A stretch of 10,457 nucleotides of DNA, from the UHGV virus genome UHGV-2079495; one strand, given 5' to 3'. The notes under the pieces are model-generated. The model saw only the letters and a program-made list of their open reading frames with translations. It had not been told where the DNA came from and made no database searches. The position numbers were made by a program, and so were the translations under genes. This stretch comes from a virus. This document shows, in pieces, positions 1,140 to 10,299 of the stretch (its first letter is position 1; each line of letters begins with the position of its first letter).

Positions 1140-1772
1140 TTACTTCCATCCACACGCTTTTTGAAGTGGCTTCAATGCCTCAGACAGACCAGCAACATCA
1201 AATGTCGCGCTCACGGGACTTTCATTGTAAGGCGTGATCTGAGTAAACATTGAGTTAGCCTGGCTCAGCGCCTTGACGAACTCAATGACATTGCCACGAT
1301 AAAATACCGATTTGGTATCGCTAGATATGTCCCATGTTTTCGTTTTTGCCTTCTGTTTATCCAAGCGAGATAACATCTGTGTTTCGTTCAACCCAAGATA
1401 GGTATCCCAATTGAGGAAAAGTTCTGTTTTTTTCTCGCGGCAAGTGATGTAAAGACTTGGTGTGATCGATTCCCCAAACTGTGACCGGAAAGAATCATTA
1501 GCAGAAAGGCTAATATAAACATTCTCTGAATCATCCACGGGTGAAGTTTTCGTGGATACCTGCCATTTTCCAACACCTACCACTGGCTTAGCCTCTTCGG
1601 CTACTTTCGGTGGAAGAACCTTATCGTAACAAGCTAAACGCGCATCACTTTTTGCCTCGGATTGGCATTTCATTAATGCGTCATTGTTAATATCGGCTTT
1701 AACTGGTTCTACCGCATACGCTGTTGATACAGCAGAAGAGCAAAGCGCCATAGCAATGATTATCTTTTTCAT
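1140..1772 (-). CDS. Secreted/periplasmic protein of unknown function with a Sec signal peptide and four Cys; carries a CYD motif. Family assignment (possibly VasI-like/DUF) is unverified
   Basis: ORF 1140..1787. The N-terminus MKKIIIAMALCSSAVSTAYA-VEP is a classical signal peptide with an AYA SPase I site. The preferred start is the ATG at 1772-1770, with AAGG about 8 nt upstream. The alternative ATG at 1787-1785 overlaps the upstream gene's stop as ATGA. The mature part is hydrophilic with Cys in MKCQSE, RLACYD, ITCREKK and KACGWK. A few hand-counted 60-nt lines give roughly 40-45% G+C. Confidence 0.7.
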   Translation of the reverse strand: MKKIIIAMALCSSAVSTAYAVEPVKADINNDALMKCQSEAKSDARLACYDKVLPPKVAEEAKPVVGVGKWQVSTKTSPVDDSENVYISLSANDSFRSQFGESITPSLYITCREKKTELFLNWDTYLGLNETQMLSRLDKQKAKTKTWDISSDTKSVFYRGNVIEFVKALSQANSMFTQITPYNESPVSATFDVAGLSEALKPLQKACGWK

Positions 1773-1783
1773 ACCATTACCTT

Positions 1784-2116
1784 TCATGATTTCGGGCGAG
1801 TAAAGAAAACAAACATTCCGATAATGATATCGCCAATAACCCAGATGGTTCCCAGCATCATCATCCCCAGCCCCGTACCAATTGCGGCTCCGGCCCGTTC
1901 TGCGTCTGAGGCTGCGTTATTGATAACGTCACTACTGCCGCCAGCCCCGGCAAAAATGCAATAGATCATAAAGATGTTAAACAGGATAAAAATCCATTTA
2001 ACGATCTTGCCAAATAATGAGCGCTTCGGCTTTCTGACCTGATGGCCGCAAGACGGGCATTTAAACGCTGAATCACTAATTTCTTTACTGCATTCCGGGC
2101 AGTTTACTAATGCCAT
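1784..2116 (-). CDS. Small zinc-ribbon membrane protein (N-terminal CPxC...CPxCG zinc ribbon, two predicted TM helices), unknown function
   Basis: ORF 1784..2137. Motif ...VNCPECSKEISDSAFKCPSCGHQ... is followed by hydrophobic stretches IVKWIFILFNIFMIYCIFAGAG and AAIGTGLGMMMLGTIWVIGDIIIGMFVFF. Preferred start is the ATG at 2116-2114 (MALVNCPEC), with GGAG/AGGA upstream; ATGs at 2137 and 2131 are alternatives. The stop overlaps the start of the downstream gene (ATGA), suggesting translational coupling. Confidence 0.65.
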   Translation of the reverse strand: MALVNCPECSKEISDSAFKCPSCGHQVRKPKRSLFGKIVKWIFILFNIFMIYCIFAGAGGSSDVINNAASDAERAGAAIGTGLGMMMLGTIWVIGDIIIGMFVFFTRPKS

Positions 2117-2180
2117 TTTCCTAGACTCCATAGACATGGTTACATAACCGCCATAAAGCCTATCAGTTGATTTTGTTTGA

Positions 2181-2498: not shown

Positions 2499-2527
2499 AG
2501 TATAACGCTTAAGACGTTGAATCGTCA
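2499..2527 (-). promoter_or_regulatory. Candidate sigma70 promoter for ogr (minus strand: TGACGA-N17-TATACT), overlapping the 3' end of D
   Basis: Minus-strand -10 TATACT at 2504-2499 and -35-like TGACGA at 2527-2522 with a 17-nt spacer, about 40 nt upstream of the ogr ATG. Judged by eye. Confidence 0.35.
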
Positions 2528-3627
2528 CTCTCCGCTGTCCAGTCGTCGATTTTTACTTCCAGTTCCAGCGACGTGGTAAACCCTCCCCCGCCAATATCGT
2601 GAACGCACCGCGTTATCGTCCAGTTCCCACTGTCGATCGTGGACTTAAAGCCGTAGACGCTGGCGGGCTGTTCCGGGTACAAATCTGCGCGGCCACGCGC
2701 TAGGGTGATGCTGAACGTCGCCGCCCCACGCTGCAACTCTCGCCACTTAGCCGCAGCGGCACGCTTCGCCGCCTTTTCCGTCTTGAAAGTTTTACGGATA
2801 ACAAAAACGTTACCTTCGGCCCCGGCCAGATAATCCCCTTCTTTTTTGCTTGATGCAGGTTCTTTCTTTTTGGCCTGGCTGGTGCGTCGCCTGCGGGTGG
2901 TTTTCTTCACGGTAGTGGATGGCTTTTTGCCAAAGTTGAGATCAAGCCAGTATGCAGTTACGCCCGTGTACGCGTCGCGGTCAGCTACGTTAAACCTATG
3001 TTTATCACCGCTTGACCGGACGATCTCGATCACTGGCAACGGCTTGCCGCTTTGCGTTACTCCCTTGCCCGGCGTGATAAACAGAAGCATACCGTTTTTA
3101 ATGGTTGCCACCGCGCCCAGCATTTCGGCCATACGCGTTAAGAAGCTGATATCTGATTCACTCGTCTGATCGGCGTGGTCTATCTCAATCTTCGCCAGTT
3201 CTTCGCTGACACCCGCACGCAGATCGTAGCGGCTGGCAATGCTGGCGACCACATCCCCCACGGTAATATCGTGCCAGCTATATTCCCGCTTCACGTTGAA
3301 GGTATCGCGGAAATCTGCGCTTCTGGCACTGATCGTTAGCTGGTCAGGCGGGCCAGCGTGTCCGATCTCGTCAACCGTATACACGCCCTTAAAAACCAAT
3401 GGATCATTATCCCAGCCCAGCGCCACCGATATCTTTGCGCCGCGTGATGGTAATGCTACCTGCCCGTCTGCATCATCCAGAGTCAGATCCAGTGTGTCCG
3501 CTTCGAAGCCCCGGTTATCTGTCAGGGAAAGGGAGATCAGCCGGTTATCCAGCGCCGTAAGCTGCTTACCTTCAATCTCAATACTGAACGCCGGGCGCGG
3601 CGAATATCGGTTTTCTGTCGTGTCCAT
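2509..3627 (-). CDS. D: P2 gpD-family tail protein (phage late control gene D protein)
   Basis: 372-aa ORF. Size (P2 gpD is about 387 aa) and position adjacent to ogr match, and the sequence character (MDTTENRYSPRPAFSIEIEGK..., C-terminal GGGGFTTSLELEV) fits the late-control-D family as I recall it. SD GAAGGGG lies upstream of the ATG at 3627. Confidence 0.88.
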   Translation of the reverse strand: MDTTENRYSPRPAFSIEIEGKQLTALDNRLISLSLTDNRGFEADTLDLTLDDADGQVALPSRGAKISVALGWDNDPLVFKGVYTVDEIGHAGPPDQLTISARSADFRDTFNVKREYSWHDITVGDVVASIASRYDLRAGVSEELAKIEIDHADQTSESDISFLTRMAEMLGAVATIKNGMLLFITPGKGVTQSGKPLPVIEIVRSSGDKHRFNVADRDAYTGVTAYWLDLNFGKKPSTTVKKTTRRRRTSQAKKKEPASSKKEGDYLAGAEGNVFVIRKTFKTEKAAKRAAAAKWRELQRGAATFSITLARGRADLYPEQPASVYGFKSTIDSGNWTITRCVHDIGGGGFTTSLELEVKIDDWTAESDDSTS

Positions 3628-3694
3628 ATCAACCCCTTCATCATGATGGGGTACATCGTCGCCACGCGCGCGCGCATGAACAACGCCCCGTCAT

Positions 3695-3762
3695 TGTTGC
3701 AGGTTGCTGACAACCCTTATTCATCGCATCGGCCTGCCATTGCCGCAATGATATTCGCAGTC
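3695..3762 (+). promoter_or_regulatory. Candidate Ogr-dependent late promoter (PF-like): TGT-N12-ACA dyad at 3695-3712 plus a -10-like GATATT at 3750-3755
   Basis: Sequence TGT-TGCAGGTTGCTG-ACA (extended TTGT...ACAA), centred at about 3703.5. That is about 55-60 bp upstream of a transcription start predicted from the -10-like hexamer, matching the architecture of P2 late promoters (TGT-N12-ACA centred near -55). It is followed by SD GAGG and the FI ATG at 3785. Confidence 0.55.
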
Positions 3763-3784
3763 ATTAAACTGGCGAGGCAAATAC

Positions 3785-4978
3785 ATGGCCACTAACTACC
3801 ATCACGGTGTAACCGTCACGGAAACCACCGACCTTAGCACGATGATCACCGACATTGATTCTGCGGTGATCGGCGTTGTCTGCACCGCTGATGATGCGGA
3901 CGAAACAGCGTTCCCGCTGGATACCCCTGTACTGATCACCCGCGTGGCTAACATGCTGGGCAAGGCAGGTAAAACCGGCACCCTGTTTACCACCCTGAAA
4001 GCGATTTCAGACCAGACCAGCCCGCAAACCATTGTGATCCGCGTTGCTGATGCTGCAAATATCGAACCGCCAGAAGGCGGCACCGCACAGACACAGGATC
4101 AACTGGTTATTGGCGGCACCGATGCAAACGGACGCTTTACCGGCATGTACGCGCTGCTGTCTGCCGAAATGCGCGTAGGCGTGCGCCCACGTGTGCTGGC
4201 TGTTCCCGGTCTTGATACGGAAGCGGTGGCCGCACAACTCGGCGTCATTGCCGAAAAGCTGCGCGCGTTTGCTTACGTGGCAGCGAACGGCTGCAACACT
4301 ATCGCCGAAGTGAAGGAATACCGCGAACAGTTCTCCCAGCGTGAAATGATGGTTATCTGGCCTAATTTCATCTGCTACGACACCAACGCCGGGGCGAATG
4401 CCACCGTGCCCGTGGGTGCCCATGCGGTTGGGATGCGCGCCAAAATCGACGCAACGCAGGGCTGGCATAAAACCATTTCCAACGTGCCCGTTAATAACGT
4501 GCTGGGGATGGATCGGGATATCTATTTCACGTTGCAGGGCACCGATACCGACGCCGACGAACTGAACGCAGCAGGCGTTACCACGCTGATCAAGCAGGAC
4601 GGCTACCGCATCTGGGGATCGCGTACCTGCGACGCGGAAACGTATATCTTCGAAAGCTATACCCGAACCGCGCAGATCGTTGCGGATACCGTCGCCGAAG
4701 CCCATTTCGCCTATGTTGATAAACCGCTTACCCCGTCGCTGGTAAAGGACATTGTGGACGGCATCAATAAGAAGCTGACCTCATATGTGACGGCTGGCAA
4801 GCTGCTGGGCGCCCGCTGCTGGTATGACCCGGAACCGAATACCTCGGAAACCCTGCGCAATGGTCAACTGACCATTAAGTACAACTACACCCCTGTTCCA
4901 CCGCTGGAAAATCTCAGCCTGGTACAGGAGTTCACCGACGAATATTTCGCTACGTTTTCCAGCGCAGTGAATAACTAA
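3785..4978 (+). CDS. FI: P2 gpFI-family contractile tail sheath protein
   Basis: 397 aa (P2 FI is about 396 aa). N-terminus MATNYHHGVTVTE... and overall sequence recognised as the myovirus P2-type sheath. Followed at a 12-nt spacing by the tube gene. Confidence 0.93.
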   Translation: MATNYHHGVTVTETTDLSTMITDIDSAVIGVVCTADDADETAFPLDTPVLITRVANMLGKAGKTGTLFTTLKAISDQTSPQTIVIRVADAANIEPPEGGTAQTQDQLVIGGTDANGRFTGMYALLSAEMRVGVRPRVLAVPGLDTEAVAAQLGVIAEKLRAFAYVAANGCNTIAEVKEYREQFSQREMMVIWPNFICYDTNAGANATVPVGAHAVGMRAKIDATQGWHKTISNVPVNNVLGMDRDIYFTLQGTDTDADELNAAGVTTLIKQDGYRIWGSRTCDAETYIFESYTRTAQIVADTVAEAHFAYVDKPLTPSLVKDIVDGINKKLTSYVTAGKLLGARCWYDPEPNTSETLRNGQLTIKYNYTPVPPLENLSLVQEFTDEYFATFSSAVNN

Positions 4979-4990
4979 CCGGGGGCGCTT

Positions 4991-5506
4991 ATGGCACTGC
5001 CTAAGAAACTCAAATATTTCAATATGTTCTTTGACGGGGATAACTACTTCGGCATGGTGCCGGAAATCACCCCCGCCAAACTCACCAAAAAAACCGAAGA
5101 CTACCAGGCGGGCGGTATGCCGGGTTCAGTTGCGGTGGATCTGGGCTTCGACGCTGGCGCCCTGGATATGGATATTACGCTGGGCGGCATGGATGCCGGG
5201 CTAATGAAAAAATGGGGCGTTACCACTGCGGACGGAATGCAGGTGCGCTTTGCTGGCTCTTACCAGGACGATGCGACCGGCGACGCCGTACCGTGCGAAA
5301 TCCAGACGCGTGGCCGCTTCACTGAACTGGATCCCGGTTCGGCAAAGGTTGGGGATGATACTTCGCATAAGTACACCCTGAAAAATACCTATTACAAGCT
5401 GACCATCAATAGCGAAGAAATTATCGAAATTGATGTGCTCAACATGATCTACAAAGTTGCCGGTGTGGATGTGCTGGAAAAACACCGCGCTAACATCGGC
5501 TTATAA
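4991..5506 (+). CDS. FII: P2 gpFII-family tail tube protein
   Basis: 171 aa (P2 FII is about 172 aa). Conserved position between sheath and E. N-terminus MALPKKLKYFNMFFDG... is typical of P2-like tube proteins. SD GGGGG upstream. Confidence 0.9.
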   Translation: MALPKKLKYFNMFFDGDNYFGMVPEITPAKLTKKTEDYQAGGMPGSVAVDLGFDAGALDMDITLGGMDAGLMKKWGVTTADGMQVRFAGSYQDDATGDAVPCEIQTRGRFTELDPGSAKVGDDTSHKYTLKNTYYKLTINSEEIIEIDVLNMIYKVAGVDVLEKHRANIGL

Positions 5507-5520
5507 GGAAACCCGGCACC

Positions 5521-5856
5521 ATGAGCAAGACCAAAGAAAACACCGTTATTCTTACCGCCCCTATTACGCGCGGTAAGACCAAAATCACCGAAGTGGCGAT
5601 CACTTCCGTGCTTAAACAGGCTGGATCACTGCGCGGCTTAAAAGCCTATGACGTGCTGACGTCCAACTATGACGCGCTGGTTATTCTGCTGCCCCGCGTT
5701 ACCGCTCCGGCATTAACCGCCGATGAGATTGCCCGAATGGATACCTGGGATTTTTGCCAGTTAGCCAACGCGGTGGTTGATTTTTTGCAACCCTCTTCGG
5801 ATCTGACCGCGACGGATACGGGCAACGAATCATCCGATGCCCCTGCGAACGCATAG
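5521..5856 (+). CDS. E: P2 gpE-family tail assembly chaperone (zero-frame product)
   Basis: 111-aa ORF immediately after FII and before the tape measure. Contains the TTTTTTG slippery heptamer near its 3' end. SD AAGGAAAC upstream. Confidence 0.85.
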   Translation: MSKTKENTVILTAPITRGKTKITEVAITSVLKQAGSLRGLKAYDVLTSNYDALVILLPRVTAPALTADEIARMDTWDFCQLANAVVDFLQPSSDLTATDTGNESSDAPANA

Positions 5857-5981
5857 AAGACCTGATGGCAGATATCGCCGTCATATTCCACTGGCGGCCG
5901 GTAGAGATGGACGCCATGACGGTACAGGAAATACTGTTATGGCGTGATCAGGCGGCTGCGCGCAGTGGTGGAGATCACTAA
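5521..5981 (+). CDS. E': gpE+E' tail assembly chaperone fusion made by a programmed -1 ribosomal frameshift at 5781-5787
   Basis: After a -1 slip on T-TTT-TTG (zero-frame codons GAT TTT TTG at 5779-5787), my hand translation from 5787 reads ATLFGSDRDGYGQRIIRCPCERIEDLMADIAVIFHWRPVEMDAMTVQEILLWRDQAAARSGGDH. This open frame stops at TAA 5979-5981, which directly abuts the tape-measure ATG at 5982, the same arrangement as P2 E/E'/T. Confidence 0.7.
5781..5787 (+). promoter_or_regulatory. Programmed -1 frameshift slippery heptamer TTTTTTG (X XXY YYZ in the E frame)
   Basis: Exact heptamer in the correct phase (T-TTT-TTG) relative to the E reading frame. The -1 frame is open for 64 codons and ends exactly at the T start. 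Confidence 0.7.
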
Positions 5982-8900
5982 ATGGCAGACCGCAATTTAA
6001 ATATCAGGGTGGCATTCAGCGCCCTGAATAATATGTCCCGCCCTGTCAACGCGGCGCGCCAGAGTGCCGCCGCGTTGGCGTCTCAAATCAATCAGACCAA
6101 AACCAGCATTAAAGGGCTTGAGCGTCAGGCAACCAGCTTTGACCGCCTCACCGCAGCCAATAAAAAAACCACCGAACAACTGGCCCAGGCGAAAGAACAG
6201 GCCCGGCAAATGGCGGCGGCTTATGGCCCGTTACGCCAGCGCAGCGCCGAACAGGTTGCCGCCCTCAATCAGCAACGTGCAGCCATTCGCCAGTTAACCC
6301 AGCAGCAGAAAGGCGAGCAGACGCAGCTTAACCAGTTGCGCGCCAGCTTCTACAGCGAAGGCATTGCGATCAGCAGCGCCAGCCGGGCGACGGAACAGAT
6401 CAACCAGCGCACCGCGCAATACAACCGCCAGCTTGCCGAACAGCAGCGACGGCTTGACGCTGTTAACCAGGCGCAGGCCCGTTACAGCCGCGCCAAAGAA
6501 ACCGGCGAAAAGATGATGAGCGGGGGGATGAAAACCGCCGCAGTAGGGGCGGCAACCCTCGCACCTGTCGCCGCTGCGGTTAAATCATACAGCAGCCTTG
6601 AAGACGCCATGAAAGGCGTAGCCAAACAGGTAAACGGCTTGCGTGACGACAGCGGCAACCGCACCCCGCAGTATGAAGAAATGCAGCGGGCGATCATGGA
6701 TGCCAGCGAAAAGCTACCAATGGCTAACGGCGCTGTTGACTATGCCGCCCTGGTCGAAGGTGGCGCGCGCATGGGCGTGGCAAACAGCGATGATCCGTGG
6801 GAAAAACAAAAAGCCGATCTGCTGGCTTTCGCCAGCATGGCGGCAAAAGCTTCGGTAGCCTTTGAACTGCCCGCCGATCAGCTTTCTGAAAGCCTCGGTA
6901 AGATTGCCGGGCTGTATAAAATCCCTACCCAGAATATTGAACAGTTAGGCGACGCCATAAACTACCTGGACGATAACGCGAAGTCGAAAGGCTCCGATAT
7001 TATCGACGTGCTCCAGCGCGTTGGCGGACTTGCCAGCCAACTGGATTACAAGCAAGCCGCCGCGCTGGGTTCCACCTTCCTGACGCTTGGATCACCTGCC
7101 GAAGTTGCCGCCAGCGCAACCAATGCAATGGTGCGCGAACTATCGATCGCCACAGTACAAAGCGATAAATTTTTGGGTGCGCTGGATGAAATCGGCATCA
7201 ATGCTGAAAAAGTCCAGAAAAGCATGTCAGTGGACGCGATGGGCACGATCATTTCAGTGCTGGAAGCGTCCAAAAAACTTGCACCAGATAAGCAGGTAGC
7301 CAACCTTACTCAGATTTTCGGTAAAGAGTTCGGCGATGATGCGCAGAAACTTGCGAACAACCTGCCCGAACTACGCCGCCAGATAGAACTGACGCAGGGC
7401 GCAGCCGCTAAAGGTTCCATGAATCGGGAATCTGATATCAATAAAGCGTCCCTTTCAGCTCAGTGGCAACTGACCAAAACCGGCGCGGTTAACGCATTGA
7501 GTTCAGCAGGGGAAACGCTCCGCGAACCGCTGATGGATATCATGCTTACCGTCAGTAAGGTGGTTGGCAGCGTCCGCCGCTGGGTTGAGGCAAACCCGGC
7601 TCTGGTTGGCTCAATCATGAAAGTCACCGCAGCCATAGGCGCGTTGCTGGTTGTCGTGGGTGGCCTGATGCTGACCATCGGCGCAGTGCTCGGCCCGATG
7701 GCACTTGTTCGCCTCAGCTTCACCACGCTGGCTGGCTCCGGTGGGGTAACTCCCCTCATAGGCTCGCTGGGAAAATTATCCAGCACATTACGCGGGCTGA
7801 TCCCCTCACTATCTGGCGTGGGCCGAAGTATTAAAGACTGGCCTGCCCTCTTCCGATCTGCTGCGTCTGGCATTACCCAATTTAGTAAACAAGCTATTGG
7901 CGGGTTAAACACAGCGTTAATGGCACTTTCACGCGGTGCTGTTGCTGCCGGACAGGGGCTATTTACCCTATTCACAAGGCCTATGACGGCTATAACCTGG
8001 CTTGGTAATGGCCTCAGAACTCTGGCGACCTCCGGTTTCGGCGCTTTGCTGAACGTTGGACGCACCGTAATGATGGCGTTGGGTGGCGGGTTATCATTAC
8101 TTCTTAGCCCTATTGGAATACTGGTAATCGCTTTATCAGCAGCAGCGATCGCCGTTATTAAATTCTGGGAACCTATAAAAGCCTTTTTCACTGGCTTTTA
8201 CACCGGGTTAATGAGTGGCTTACAGCCTTTAACCTCAGCATTTAGTACAGCCTTTGCACCACTAGCCCCACTCTTTGACTCTATCGGTAATGCTGTCGGT
8301 GGCGTCTGGGAGTGGTTCACAAAACTATTCGAACCTATCCAGTTCTCCAGCGAAGCGCTAGCCTCCTGCACCAGTGCCGGGGAAACGTTCGGTAAGGTTG
8401 TAGGTAACGCTCTATCTGCATTAACACCAATAATCGAAGGAATAGCGCGCGGTATAGGATGGGTACTGGAAAAACTCGGCGCCATCCCCGACGCAACAAA
8501 AGCAGCGCAGCAAGCTGCGGAAAGTATGCACAAAGACCCTGTTGTCTGGGAGTGGGATCCGCAGCAAAAGAAAATGGTTAAAAAGGGTTGGAACTGGTCG
8601 CCGAAAGACGATCAGCAGAAGAAAACCAACCAGAAGCAACAGCAGGCCATTGACCAGCAGAAAAAGCAGGAAAGCTTAATTAACTCGCTCAAGGGCCCGG
8701 CCAACATCGTGCCGAAGATGAGCAGCAGCCTGGATAAGATCGCCACCAATACCACGGAGAAGAAAGACGGCCCCGGCGAAATTGTCTTCAAGAATAAGCA
8801 GCCCTATATCCCGATCCGTGGTGGATATTCGGAACCGCTTAAGCAGGTGCAGCGCCAACTACCATCCCTTACCGATTGGGTGACGCAGCAGGCCGGATCG

Positions 8901-9152
8901 CTGATCGCTTCCGTTACGCCTTGGCAGGTTGAGAAGCCCGCCGCACGGATGCCTGTTTCGGCGTCTCCGTCTGCGGCTTCCGTCGCTGCGCTGATGCCTG
9001 CTCCGGGTGGCGATGTATATAACCTTAACTTCGACTTTAGCGGCCAGAAACTGGATGAAGAAACCATTATCAGGCGCGTGCGCGAAGAACTTGCGTTAGC
9101 GAAGCAACAGGCCGACCGGCGCAAGCGCTCCCAACTGACCGATCACGTCTAA
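5982..9152 (+). CDS. T: Tail tape measure protein (P2 gpT family)
   Basis: 1056-aa ORF immediately after E/E'. N-terminal Q/A-rich, coiled-coil-like region, a central hydrophobic Gly/Ala-rich segment and a C-terminal K/Q-rich region, typical of tape measure proteins. Position between E' and U is as in P2. Confidence 0.9.
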   Translation: MADRNLNIRVAFSALNNMSRPVNAARQSAAALASQINQTKTSIKGLERQATSFDRLTAANKKTTEQLAQAKEQARQMAAAYGPLRQRSAEQVAALNQQRAAIRQLTQQQKGEQTQLNQLRASFYSEGIAISSASRATEQINQRTAQYNRQLAEQQRRLDAVNQAQARYSRAKETGEKMMSGGMKTAAVGAATLAPVAAAVKSYSSLEDAMKGVAKQVNGLRDDSGNRTPQYEEMQRAIMDASEKLPMANGAVDYAALVEGGARMGVANSDDPWEKQKADLLAFASMAAKASVAFELPADQLSESLGKIAGLYKIPTQNIEQLGDAINYLDDNAKSKGSDIIDVLQRVGGLASQLDYKQAAALGSTFLTLGSPAEVAASATNAMVRELSIATVQSDKFLGALDEIGINAEKVQKSMSVDAMGTIISVLEASKKLAPDKQVANLTQIFGKEFGDDAQKLANNLPELRRQIELTQGAAAKGSMNRESDINKASLSAQWQLTKTGAVNALSSAGETLREPLMDIMLTVSKVVGSVRRWVEANPALVGSIMKVTAAIGALLVVVGGLMLTIGAVLGPMALVRLSFTTLAGSGGVTPLIGSLGKLSSTLRGLIPSLSGVGRSIKDWPALFRSAASGITQFSKQAIGGLNTALMALSRGAVAAGQGLFTLFTRPMTAITWLGNGLRTLATSGFGALLNVGRTVMMALGGGLSLLLSPIGILVIALSAAAIAVIKFWEPIKAFFTGFYTGLMSGLQPLTSAFSTAFAPLAPLFDSIGNAVGGVWEWFTKLFEPIQFSSEALASCTSAGETFGKVVGNALSALTPIIEGIARGIGWVLEKLGAIPDATKAAQQAAESMHKDPVVWEWDPQQKKMVKKGWNWSPKDDQQKKTNQKQQQAIDQQKKQESLINSLKGPANIVPKMSSSLDKIATNTTEKKDGPGEIVFKNKQPYIPIRGGYSEPLKQVQRQLPSLTDWVTQQAGSLIASVTPWQVEKPAARMPVSASPSAASVAALMPAPGGDVYNLNFDFSGQKLDEETIIRRVREELALAKQQADRRKRSQLTDHV

Positions 9153-9161
9153 GGCAATATC

Positions 9162-9611
9162 ATGATGATGATTCTGGGGATGTTCCCCTTTTCACTGCAA
9201 ACCACACCTTACCAGAGTGCGAATAAAACCAACTCCTGGCGGCACGTCAAAAACGATCGCGTGGGGAAATCCCCGCGCTATCAGTTCATCGGCGCAGATG
9301 AAGAACCGTTCGTACTCAGCGGCACGCTGTACCCCGAAATAAGCGGCGGTGATGTGTCGCTTGTCATGCTGGAAACTATGGCTTTTTCCGGGCGCCCGTG
9401 GCCCCTGATAGAAGGCACGGGCAGGATCTACGGCATGTATGTAATTGAGCAGATCACGCAAAACCGGACGGAGTTTTTTAAGGACGGGAAGGCAAAGAAA
9501 ATTGATTTCACGCTCAACCTGAAACGGGTAAGCGAGGACATACGGGAAAAGCTGGCTGAAACCACTACCGACGATCTCTTCTCTCTGGTGAAAACCAACC
9601 TTTCGATATAA
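9162..9611 (+). CDS. U: P2 gpU-family tail protein
   Basis: 149 aa (P2 gpU is about 159 aa), directly downstream of T (9-nt gap, SD AAGG). N-terminus MMMILGMFPFSLQTTPYQ... resembles gpU as I recall it. Confidence 0.85.
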   Translation: MMMILGMFPFSLQTTPYQSANKTNSWRHVKNDRVGKSPRYQFIGADEEPFVLSGTLYPEISGGDVSLVMLETMAFSGRPWPLIEGTGRIYGMYVIEQITQNRTEFFKDGKAKKIDFTLNLKRVSEDIREKLAETTTDDLFSLVKTNLSI

Positions 9612-9717: not shown

Positions 9718-10299
9718 TTATAACCGGCCATGCGTGCCGGAATTCTTATCTCTGGTCGCTGGGAATTTTTTGTAAAGCGTAGATATCCCAACATCATAAA
9801 TTATGGCAACCCTCCGGCGCGATTCCCCTGCCGCTATTAACCTACCCGCCTGCGCCCATTGTTCTGGTGTTAGTTTTGGACGTCTACCGCCGATCCTTCC
9901 CTGCGCGCGAGCGGCCACCAGTCCTGCACGCGTACGCTCGACAATCAATTCTCTTTCCATCTCTGCCAGTGCTCCCATAACATGAAAAAAGAAACGCCCC
10001 ATTGGTGTTGAGGTATCAATACTGTCAGTCAGGCTGCGGAAGTTCACGGAACGTTGCTTTAGTTCCTCCACCAGAATGACCAAGTTCCGCATACTCCGCC
10101 CAAGACGATCCAGCTTCCAGACAACAAGCGTATCTTCTGGAGAAAGGCGCTTTAGTAATTTTTTAAGCCCTGGCCTTTCCGCTGTTCTCCCGCTCATTTT
10201 ATCTTCAAAAATTATCTCACATCCTGACCGCTCAAGCGCATCACGTTGCAAAGCCGTGTTCTGGTCATTTGTTGATACGCGCACATATCCAATAAGCAT
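9718..10299 (-). CDS. pin: Serine-recombinase DNA invertase of the Pin/Gin/Cin/Hin family
   Basis: 193-aa ORF MLIGYVRVSTNDQNT...DTLVVWKLDRLGRSM...SLTDSIDTSTPMGRFFFHVMGALAEMERELIVERT...STLYKKF. It is near-collinear with E. coli e14 Pin and Salmonella Hin as I recall them, with the catalytic Ser in the RVSTNDQ motif and a C-terminal HTH. SD AAGGAA upstream of the ATG at 10299-10297. Confidence 0.93.
   Translation of the reverse strand: MLIGYVRVSTNDQNTALQRDALERSGCEIIFEDKMSGRTAERPGLKKLLKRLSPEDTLVVWKLDRLGRSMRNLVILVEELKQRSVNFRSLTDSIDTSTPMGRFFFHVMGALAEMERELIVERTRAGLVAARAQGRIGGRRPKLTPEQWAQAGRLIAAGESRRRVAIIYDVGISTLYKKFPATRDKNSGTHGRL

Follow-up and report, generated by a model that had tools for sequence, protein, structure and literature searches.

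Results

Gene organization around the D/FI intergenic region

The window, which is the whole 10,457-bp stretch of viral DNA analysed here (UHGV-2079495), is by its sequence a SEN4/SEN5-like prophage of the P2 family. Positions 3400–4000 share 98.5% identity with the Salmonella phages SEN4 and SEN5 (Peduoviridae, Senquatrovirus), and the host gene fieF adjoins the prophage in the window. The tail/baseplate hub protein gpD is encoded by D on the minus strand (2509–3627; Pfam Phage_GPD, 6.6e-19). D is followed on the same strand by an ogr homologue (2218–2460; Pfam Ogr_Delta, 1.5e-13), whose 80-residue product contains an intact CX2CX22CX4C motif. A sigma-70-like site, GTGACG-18-TATACT, lies inside the 3′ end of D on the minus strand (2528 to 2499) and is a candidate ogr promoter, and an intrinsic terminator with a 9-bp stem and a T run (2215–2193, minus strand) ends the D-ogr unit. 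Both the promoter-like site and the strong terminator directly after ogr mirror elements annotated in P2. On the plus strand, gene calls and Pfam matches define the tail operon FI-FII-E-T-U (3785–9611), which consists of the sheath gene FI (3785–4978, sheath domains), the tube gene FII (4991–5506), the chaperone gene E (5521–5856), the long tape-measure gene T (5982–9152) and U (9162–9611). The two units are separated by a 157-bp intergenic region (3628–3784) that extends from the D start codon (complement of 3625–3627) to the FI start codon at 3785. Scans of the window for Rfam families and tRNA genes gave no hits.

D and FI are divergent because the FI-U block is inverted relative to P2. The P2 record displays the order pF-FI-FII-E-T-U-D-ogr on one strand throughout, whereas in SEN5 and the window the D-ogr and FI-U units diverge from a common intergenic region. 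The divergent layout is also found in the Novemvirus phiT5282H and the Reipivirus ST16-OXA48phi5.4. All 79 viral contigs that show both genes have it (FI identity of 67% or higher), as do 36 of 80 species-level genome loci, from ∼20 enterobacterial genera. Relatives with an FI identity of ∼55% or less have the P2 layout.

The window has several other features. Its match to SEN5 comprises three pieces that cover 65% of the window, and T encodes 1056 residues in the window and 974 in SEN5. Two cargo genes, a zinc-ribbon gene (1784–2137, minus strand) and a VasI/TagO-like type VI secretion-associated gene (1140–1787, minus strand), lie between the ogr terminator and fieF, and similar genes are found in Citrobacter and Escherichia P2-like phages. 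Directly after U, a Hin/Gin-type serine DNA invertase gene (9718–10299, minus strand; Resolvase and HTH_7) occupies the position of a tail-fibre assembly gene in SEN5; the similarity to SEN5 stops near 9809, and an invertible tail-fibre segment may lie beyond the window. At the fieF end, positions 904–1026 are 100% identical to the end of the P2 prophage record KC618326, and positions 982–1112 are 95.5% identical to an unannotated stretch adjoining int in phage phiT5282H. From these matches, the 904–1112 segment is probably the attachment core or the prophage end beside fieF.

A conserved Ogr-type dyad between D and FI

The middle of the D/FI intergenic region contains an inverted repeat, TGTTGCAGGTTGCTGACA, at positions 3695–3712. 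It reads exactly TGT-TGCAGGTTGCTG-ACA, as an earlier note on this DNA had stated, and extends by one base pair on each side to a perfect TTGT-N12-ACAA dyad (3694–3713) with its centre at 3703.5. In P2, TGT-N12-ACA is a feature of the four late promoters, all of which require Ogr, a protein with a CX2CX22CX4C motif (PMC3931495). The inverted repeats bound by Ogr have their centres near −55, and Ogr-dependent transcription also requires the RNA polymerase alpha subunit, through a contact with its C-terminal domain (PMC3152322).

TGT-N12-ACA occurs only once in the whole 10,457-bp window, but the bare motif is at chance level there, with 1.79 matches expected and at least one match in 169 of 200 shuffled sequences. 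The significance of the dyad consequently rests on its position and conservation. Allowing one mismatch is uninformative, yielding 126 matches in SEN5 versus 128 expected. The longer form, TTGT-N12-ACAA, is found exactly three times in the complete 33.5-kb SEN5 genome (0.54 expected), once in each of the P/O, S/V and D/FI gaps. All three sites are located upstream of late operons, at places that match pP/pO, pV and pF of P2.

The dyad was followed through 114 related divergent-layout loci from ∼20 enterobacterial genera with FI identities of 56–100%. In 110 of these loci, a TGT-N12-ACA dyad or its one-mismatch form, mostly with AGA, is located 83–97 bp before the FI start codon. The terminal TGT and ACA are kept, while the N12 interior varies freely between lineages (TGCAGGTTGCTG, TGCGGTCTGCTG, TATACGCCCCTG, CACGGCTCTAAG, GTCAGCCCTGAT and CGCGGGTCGGTG). 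An Ogr homologue is encoded downstream of D and on the D strand in 111 of the 114 loci, with the exact CX2CX22CX4C motif in 106. The proposal in the earlier note that the activator is encoded on the divergent D unit is thus supported. The Ogr homologue of the window is 30% identical to P2 Ogr and is assumed, by analogy, to share its binding specificity. Judging from its position and conservation, the dyad is very probably bound by the phage late-gene activator Ogr.

One sub-group deviates from the consensus. In Enterobacter, Klebsiella, Kosakonia and related genera, the D/FI dyad ends in AGA instead of ACA, in the conserved context TTTTTGTTGTC...CAGAC (loci L003, L004, L103, L107, L110, L116, L118, L120 and L124). 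The Ogr proteins of this sub-group form a separate sequence group, 37–47% identical to the window Ogr, and co-variation of site and activator is possible.

A hairpin at 3702–3715 (GGTTG-CTGA-CAACC) was flagged as terminator-like but dismissed, as its 5-bp stem lies inside the dyad and its T run is poor.

Mirror-image −10-like hexamers at a fixed distance from the dyad

The intergenic regions of 36 non-redundant divergent-layout representatives, which are mutually related so that the counts given below overstate independence, were anchored on their dyads and profiled with a sigma-70 −10 weight matrix against distance. The matrix consists of approximate literature frequencies. A single sharp peak is observed on each side of the dyad, where the hexamer begins 43.5 bp away from the centre. 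The FI-side peak reaches +2.1 bits and the D-side peak +0.8 bits over a background of approximately −7 bits. A score of at least 1.61 bits at the 43.5-bp register is attained by 35 of the 36 representatives on the FI side and by 26 on the D side, versus 1.1 expected.

In the window, the FI-side register is occupied by AATGAT (3747–3752, plus strand; 2.9 bits, top 1.9% of window hexamers), the putative −10 of pF. The same hexamer at the same distance from the dyad is found at SEN5 pO. The mirror position on the D side contains GACGAT (complement of 3655–3660; 1.6 bits, top 3.2% of window hexamers), a weak −10 that lacks a T at position 1 and is the putative −10 of pD. The earlier note had found no recognizable −10 for D on the minus strand. 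That view is not supported, since GACGAT lies at the exact mirror position of the pF hexamer, its score is reached in 26 of 36 representatives, and the far-side hexamer is missing in P2-layout relatives without a divergent gene. The same note had placed an FI promoter downstream of the dyad with GATATT as its −10 and GAGG as the Shine-Dalgarno sequence. Both elements are located where it put them (3750–3755 and 3774–3777), and the FI promoter itself is supported. GATATT overlaps AATGAT and starts 3 bp further downstream; it scores slightly higher in the window (3.5 bits), but the family-wide mean at its register is −0.6 bits and the conserved register is that of AATGAT.

From the dyad centre to the FI start codon, the distance is 81.5 bp in the window. 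It is 82.5 bp at P2 pF, and the 36 relatives have a median of 82.5 bp as well, which agrees with the earlier placement of an Ogr-type site ∼55–60 bp upstream of the FI transcription start. On the other side, the D start codon is 76.5 bp from the centre, which is also the median. By analogy with P2, FI transcription is predicted to start within 3758–3762 (plus strand), near the A at 3759, 55.5 bp from the centre, or at ∼3762 if GATATT serves as the −10. The predicted D start is at 3647–3648 (minus strand), 55.5–56.5 bp from the centre. These starts would generate a leader of ∼26 nt for FI that contains GAGG (3774–3777, plus strand) and a leader of ∼21 nt for D (CATCATGATGAAGGGGTTGAT-ATG) that contains AAGGGG (3633–3638, minus strand).

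The −35 regions are poor. Only 2 of 36 representatives have an FI-side −35 whose best match covers four or more of the six positions; an outward D-side −35-like hexamer of this quality is present in 19 of 36, versus a background of 15%. The AATGAT (2.9 bits) and GACGAT (1.6 bits) elements thus combine a recognizable −10 with a poor −35, as is typical of a weak core promoter. The region contains every sequence-level element of a P2-type Ogr-dependent late promoter: the dyad, the position at a late operon, an encoded activator and a weak core. It also displays the arrangement of a pP/pO-type common site, in which one dyad is flanked at equal distances by two hexamers, each facing a late gene.

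In some lineages, a start codon is located where transcription is predicted to begin. The D start codon of two loci of a Yersinia lineage (L070 and L071) and the SEN5 P start codon (2990–2992) lie 55.5–56.5 bp from the dyad centre, and in the P2 record the base annotated as the pV start site (10308) is also that of the V start codon. This coincidence suggests that some lineages produce leaderless late mRNAs.

Orientation of the two proposed promoters

Three bases of the −10 registers are conserved, namely the A residues of flank positions p36 and p39 and the T of p40. They are kept in 35, 36 and 35 of the 36 representatives on the FI side and in 33, 29 and 31 on the D side, respectively. The hexamers are quasi-palindromic, and the conserved bases act as A2 and T6 on either strand. 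The −10 score alone consequently failed to fix the strand of the promoters in the 36 representatives, with the inward reading scoring as well or better; the FI-side hexamer averages 4.2 bits when read inward and 2.1 bits when read outward. The strand assignment therefore rests on the P2 precedent, a control with P2-layout loci and the −35 support.

The inward readings lack a conserved −35, with at least four of six matching positions in 8 of 36 and 5 of 36 representatives against a background of 15%. Moreover, an inward bias of the FI-side hexamer is also seen in 27 P2-layout pF loci, where there is nothing upstream to transcribe. No hexamer is found on the far side of the dyad at P2 pF, at SEN5 pV or in the 27 P2-layout loci (approximately −6 to −10 bits). 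Since the far side is empty at unidirectional promoters, the D-side hexamer is present only where D can be transcribed. D has no co-oriented gene upstream, and its promoter must accordingly be in the D/FI gap.

Promoters were compared with each other in an ungapped, dyad-anchored manner, since a MAFFT alignment of eight promoters introduced gaps into the P2 rows. The window pD and SEN5 pV share 44 of 69 positions, the highest value of all promoter pairs (median, 25 of 69). Their dyads are identical at 17 of 20 positions when the window is read towards D.

An alternating (CG)n run beside pD

A (CG)5.5 run is located between the dyad and the putative pD −10 (3665–3675), at approximately −28 to −17 relative to the predicted D start. 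In the SEN5 genome, pP, pV and pD are the only sites of the 9-mer GCGCGCGCG, with runs at 3012–3020, 9298–9308 and 20827–20837. Runs of 6 nt or more were found on the D side of 28 of 36 representatives, compared with 3 of 36 on the FI side and 2 of 144 background segments.

We tentatively consider, at rather low odds, that the promoters with a CG run (pD, pV and pP) form a distinct Ogr-dependent subclass in which the run is a second regulatory input. If so, each bidirectional site would pair a CG-run promoter with a promoter that has AATGAT and no run (pF or pO). The run could then be a supercoiling- or Z-DNA-sensitive spacer, a methylation-sensitive element or the site of a second factor. The two sides of one activator site would differ in strength or timing, and the positive feedback of Ogr on the D-ogr transcript would be gated separately from the expression of the tail structure.

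Comparison with known Ogr-dependent promoters

The closest known counterpart of the D/FI region is the pP/pO region of P2 (NC_001895), where a single Ogr/Delta site (3057–3087) serves the divergent promoters pP and pO. The P2 dyad is centred at 3071.5, and the mapped starts at 3016 and 3127 are each 55.5 bp away. The −10 hexamers TAGCCT and GAAACT both start 43.5 bp from the centre. Across P2, mapped starts are 55.5–58.5 bp from the dyad centre. The P2 and window regions are alike in having one dyad between two divergent late operons and hexamers at 43.5 bp on both sides. They differ in that the P2 dyad is partial (TTGT-N12-CCAT) and the window dyad perfect, in that P and O flank the P2 site whereas the D and FI pair was created by the FI-U inversion, in the (CG)n run on the D side of the window and in that the starts are mapped in P2 and predicted in the window. 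The P/O region of SEN5 is built in the same way as P2 pP/pO, and its P-side hexamer, TAGCCT, is identical to that of P2.

P2 pF precedes the same genes, FI, FII, E, T and U, and shares the poor −35. Its −10 hexamer GAAAAT starts at 44.5 bp from the dyad centre, compared with 43.5 bp for AATGAT in the window. Unlike the window region, P2 pF is unidirectional, with a far-side score of −10.7, and its operon includes D; in the window, D lies apart on the opposite strand and would have a half-promoter to itself.

Beyond the P2 genome, dyads of this kind have been predicted routinely in papers on P2-like genomes (PMC3931495, PMC5694545). One dyad of Smp131 was assigned in silico to two divergent promoters, PP′ and PO′ (PMC3931495), and TGTTGT-N13-ACAACA was predicted in phiRSY1 and phiRSA1 (PMC5694545). 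These phages resemble the window in their in-silico TGT...ACA inverted repeats upstream of late operons and in a zinc-finger Ogr homologue, but differ in host, gene pairs and spacing (N13 in the Ralstonia phages), and none has the D/FI divergence. In an incomplete coverage of the literature, the paper describing SEN4 and SEN5 and a 2026 survey of P2-like phages do not mention the D/FI pair, ogr, the promoters or the inversion. The pD/pF pair appears to be the ordinary design already known from P2 pP/pO, applied to another gene pair.

Discussion

The D/FI intergenic region is best explained as a bidirectional pD/pF promoter pair that depends on Ogr and has one common activator site, a reading to which we assign a probability of roughly 0.7. 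The dyad, the mirror-image hexamers and the P2 pP/pO precedent all point to it. Observed directly are the dyad and the hexamers, with their spacing, conservation and joint occurrence with an Ogr homologue. By analogy with P2, we infer that Ogr binds the dyad, where each transcript begins, on which strand each −10 is read and that both promoters depend on Ogr.

Three other explanations can be weighed against this evidence. The dyad could activate pF only; an Ogr-independent promoter within the D/FI region would then serve D and ogr, or D would be expressed in some other way. The weakness of GACGAT, the lower D-side peak (+0.8 versus +2.1 bits) and the conserved extra (CG)n run, which could belong to a different control system, are consistent with such an arrangement. 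We nevertheless regard it as unlikely, because the D-side hexamer occurs at the exact mirror distance far more often than expected and is gone where there is no gene on that side. In addition, pD resembles the dyad-bearing late promoter pV of SEN5, also in the (CG) run, and in P2 D is a late structural gene within the Ogr-dependent F operon. Alternatively, the TGT-N12-ACA match could have arisen by chance, given the 1.79 matches expected per window, or the region could encode a small protein. RefSeq annotates a 50-residue hypothetical protein across it (SEN5_27, NC_028701), corresponding to a plus-strand ORF at 3643–3795 that spans the whole D/FI promoter region and extends over the FI start. 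This ORF is intact in only 10 of 36 representatives and is probably not a gene. A chance origin is difficult to reconcile with a dyad whose position is conserved in nearly all of the 114 loci while its interior varies, and with the location of all three SEN5 sites at late operons. The conservation pattern effectively refutes both the chance and the coding explanations, and we consider them extremely improbable.

The remaining alternative reverses the direction of both promoters. The hexamers would be −10 elements read inward, and D, for example, would be transcribed across the dyad from TCGCCA-16-TATCAT (3775 to 3748, minus strand), which a generic scan reports as a 9/12 sigma-70 match. The dyad would then be located at approximately +37, downstream of the start, and would act as an operator or roadblock rather than as an activator site. 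The high inward scores of the FI-side hexamer, which are at least 2 bits in 94% of representatives, fit this arrangement, but the accompanying −35 is not conserved, the same bias is found in the P2-layout loci and the P2 starts were mapped outward. The inward orientation also leaves unexplained the fixed 43.5-bp distance from the dyad and the short leaders with Shine-Dalgarno sequences. We judge it improbable.

For the bidirectional pD/pF pair, the following mechanism is proposed. Ogr would first be made from its own promoter-like site within D (GTGACG-18-TATACT). The Ogr protein would bind the TTGT-N12-ACAA dyad and, from approximately −55 on either side, recruit sigma-70 RNA polymerase via the alpha subunit, as in P2. 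Its targets would be two weak core promoters with poor −35 regions. With a start near 3759, pF would drive FI-FII-E-T-U. On the opposite strand, pD would start near 3648, drive D and read on into ogr up to the terminator at 2215–2193. Late read-through into ogr comes from pF in P2 and would come from pD in the window.

The bidirectional reading leaves the current picture of P2 late regulation unchanged and yields precise predictions, namely two start sites, three conserved bases per −10 and one dyad. It also provides an annotation rule for a widespread group of enterobacterial prophages, as the divergent layout is found in ∼45% of the species-level FI relatives sampled: the D/FI gap would be annotated as a regulatory region and not as the small RefSeq ORF of SEN5. 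For the phage, the arrangement would show how an essential tail gene remained under late control in a member of the P2 family whose genome had undergone an inversion. By inverting, the FI-U block would have carried its Ogr site to a position beside D, where a second core promoter, on the opposite face of that site, would restore the expression of D and the read-through into ogr.
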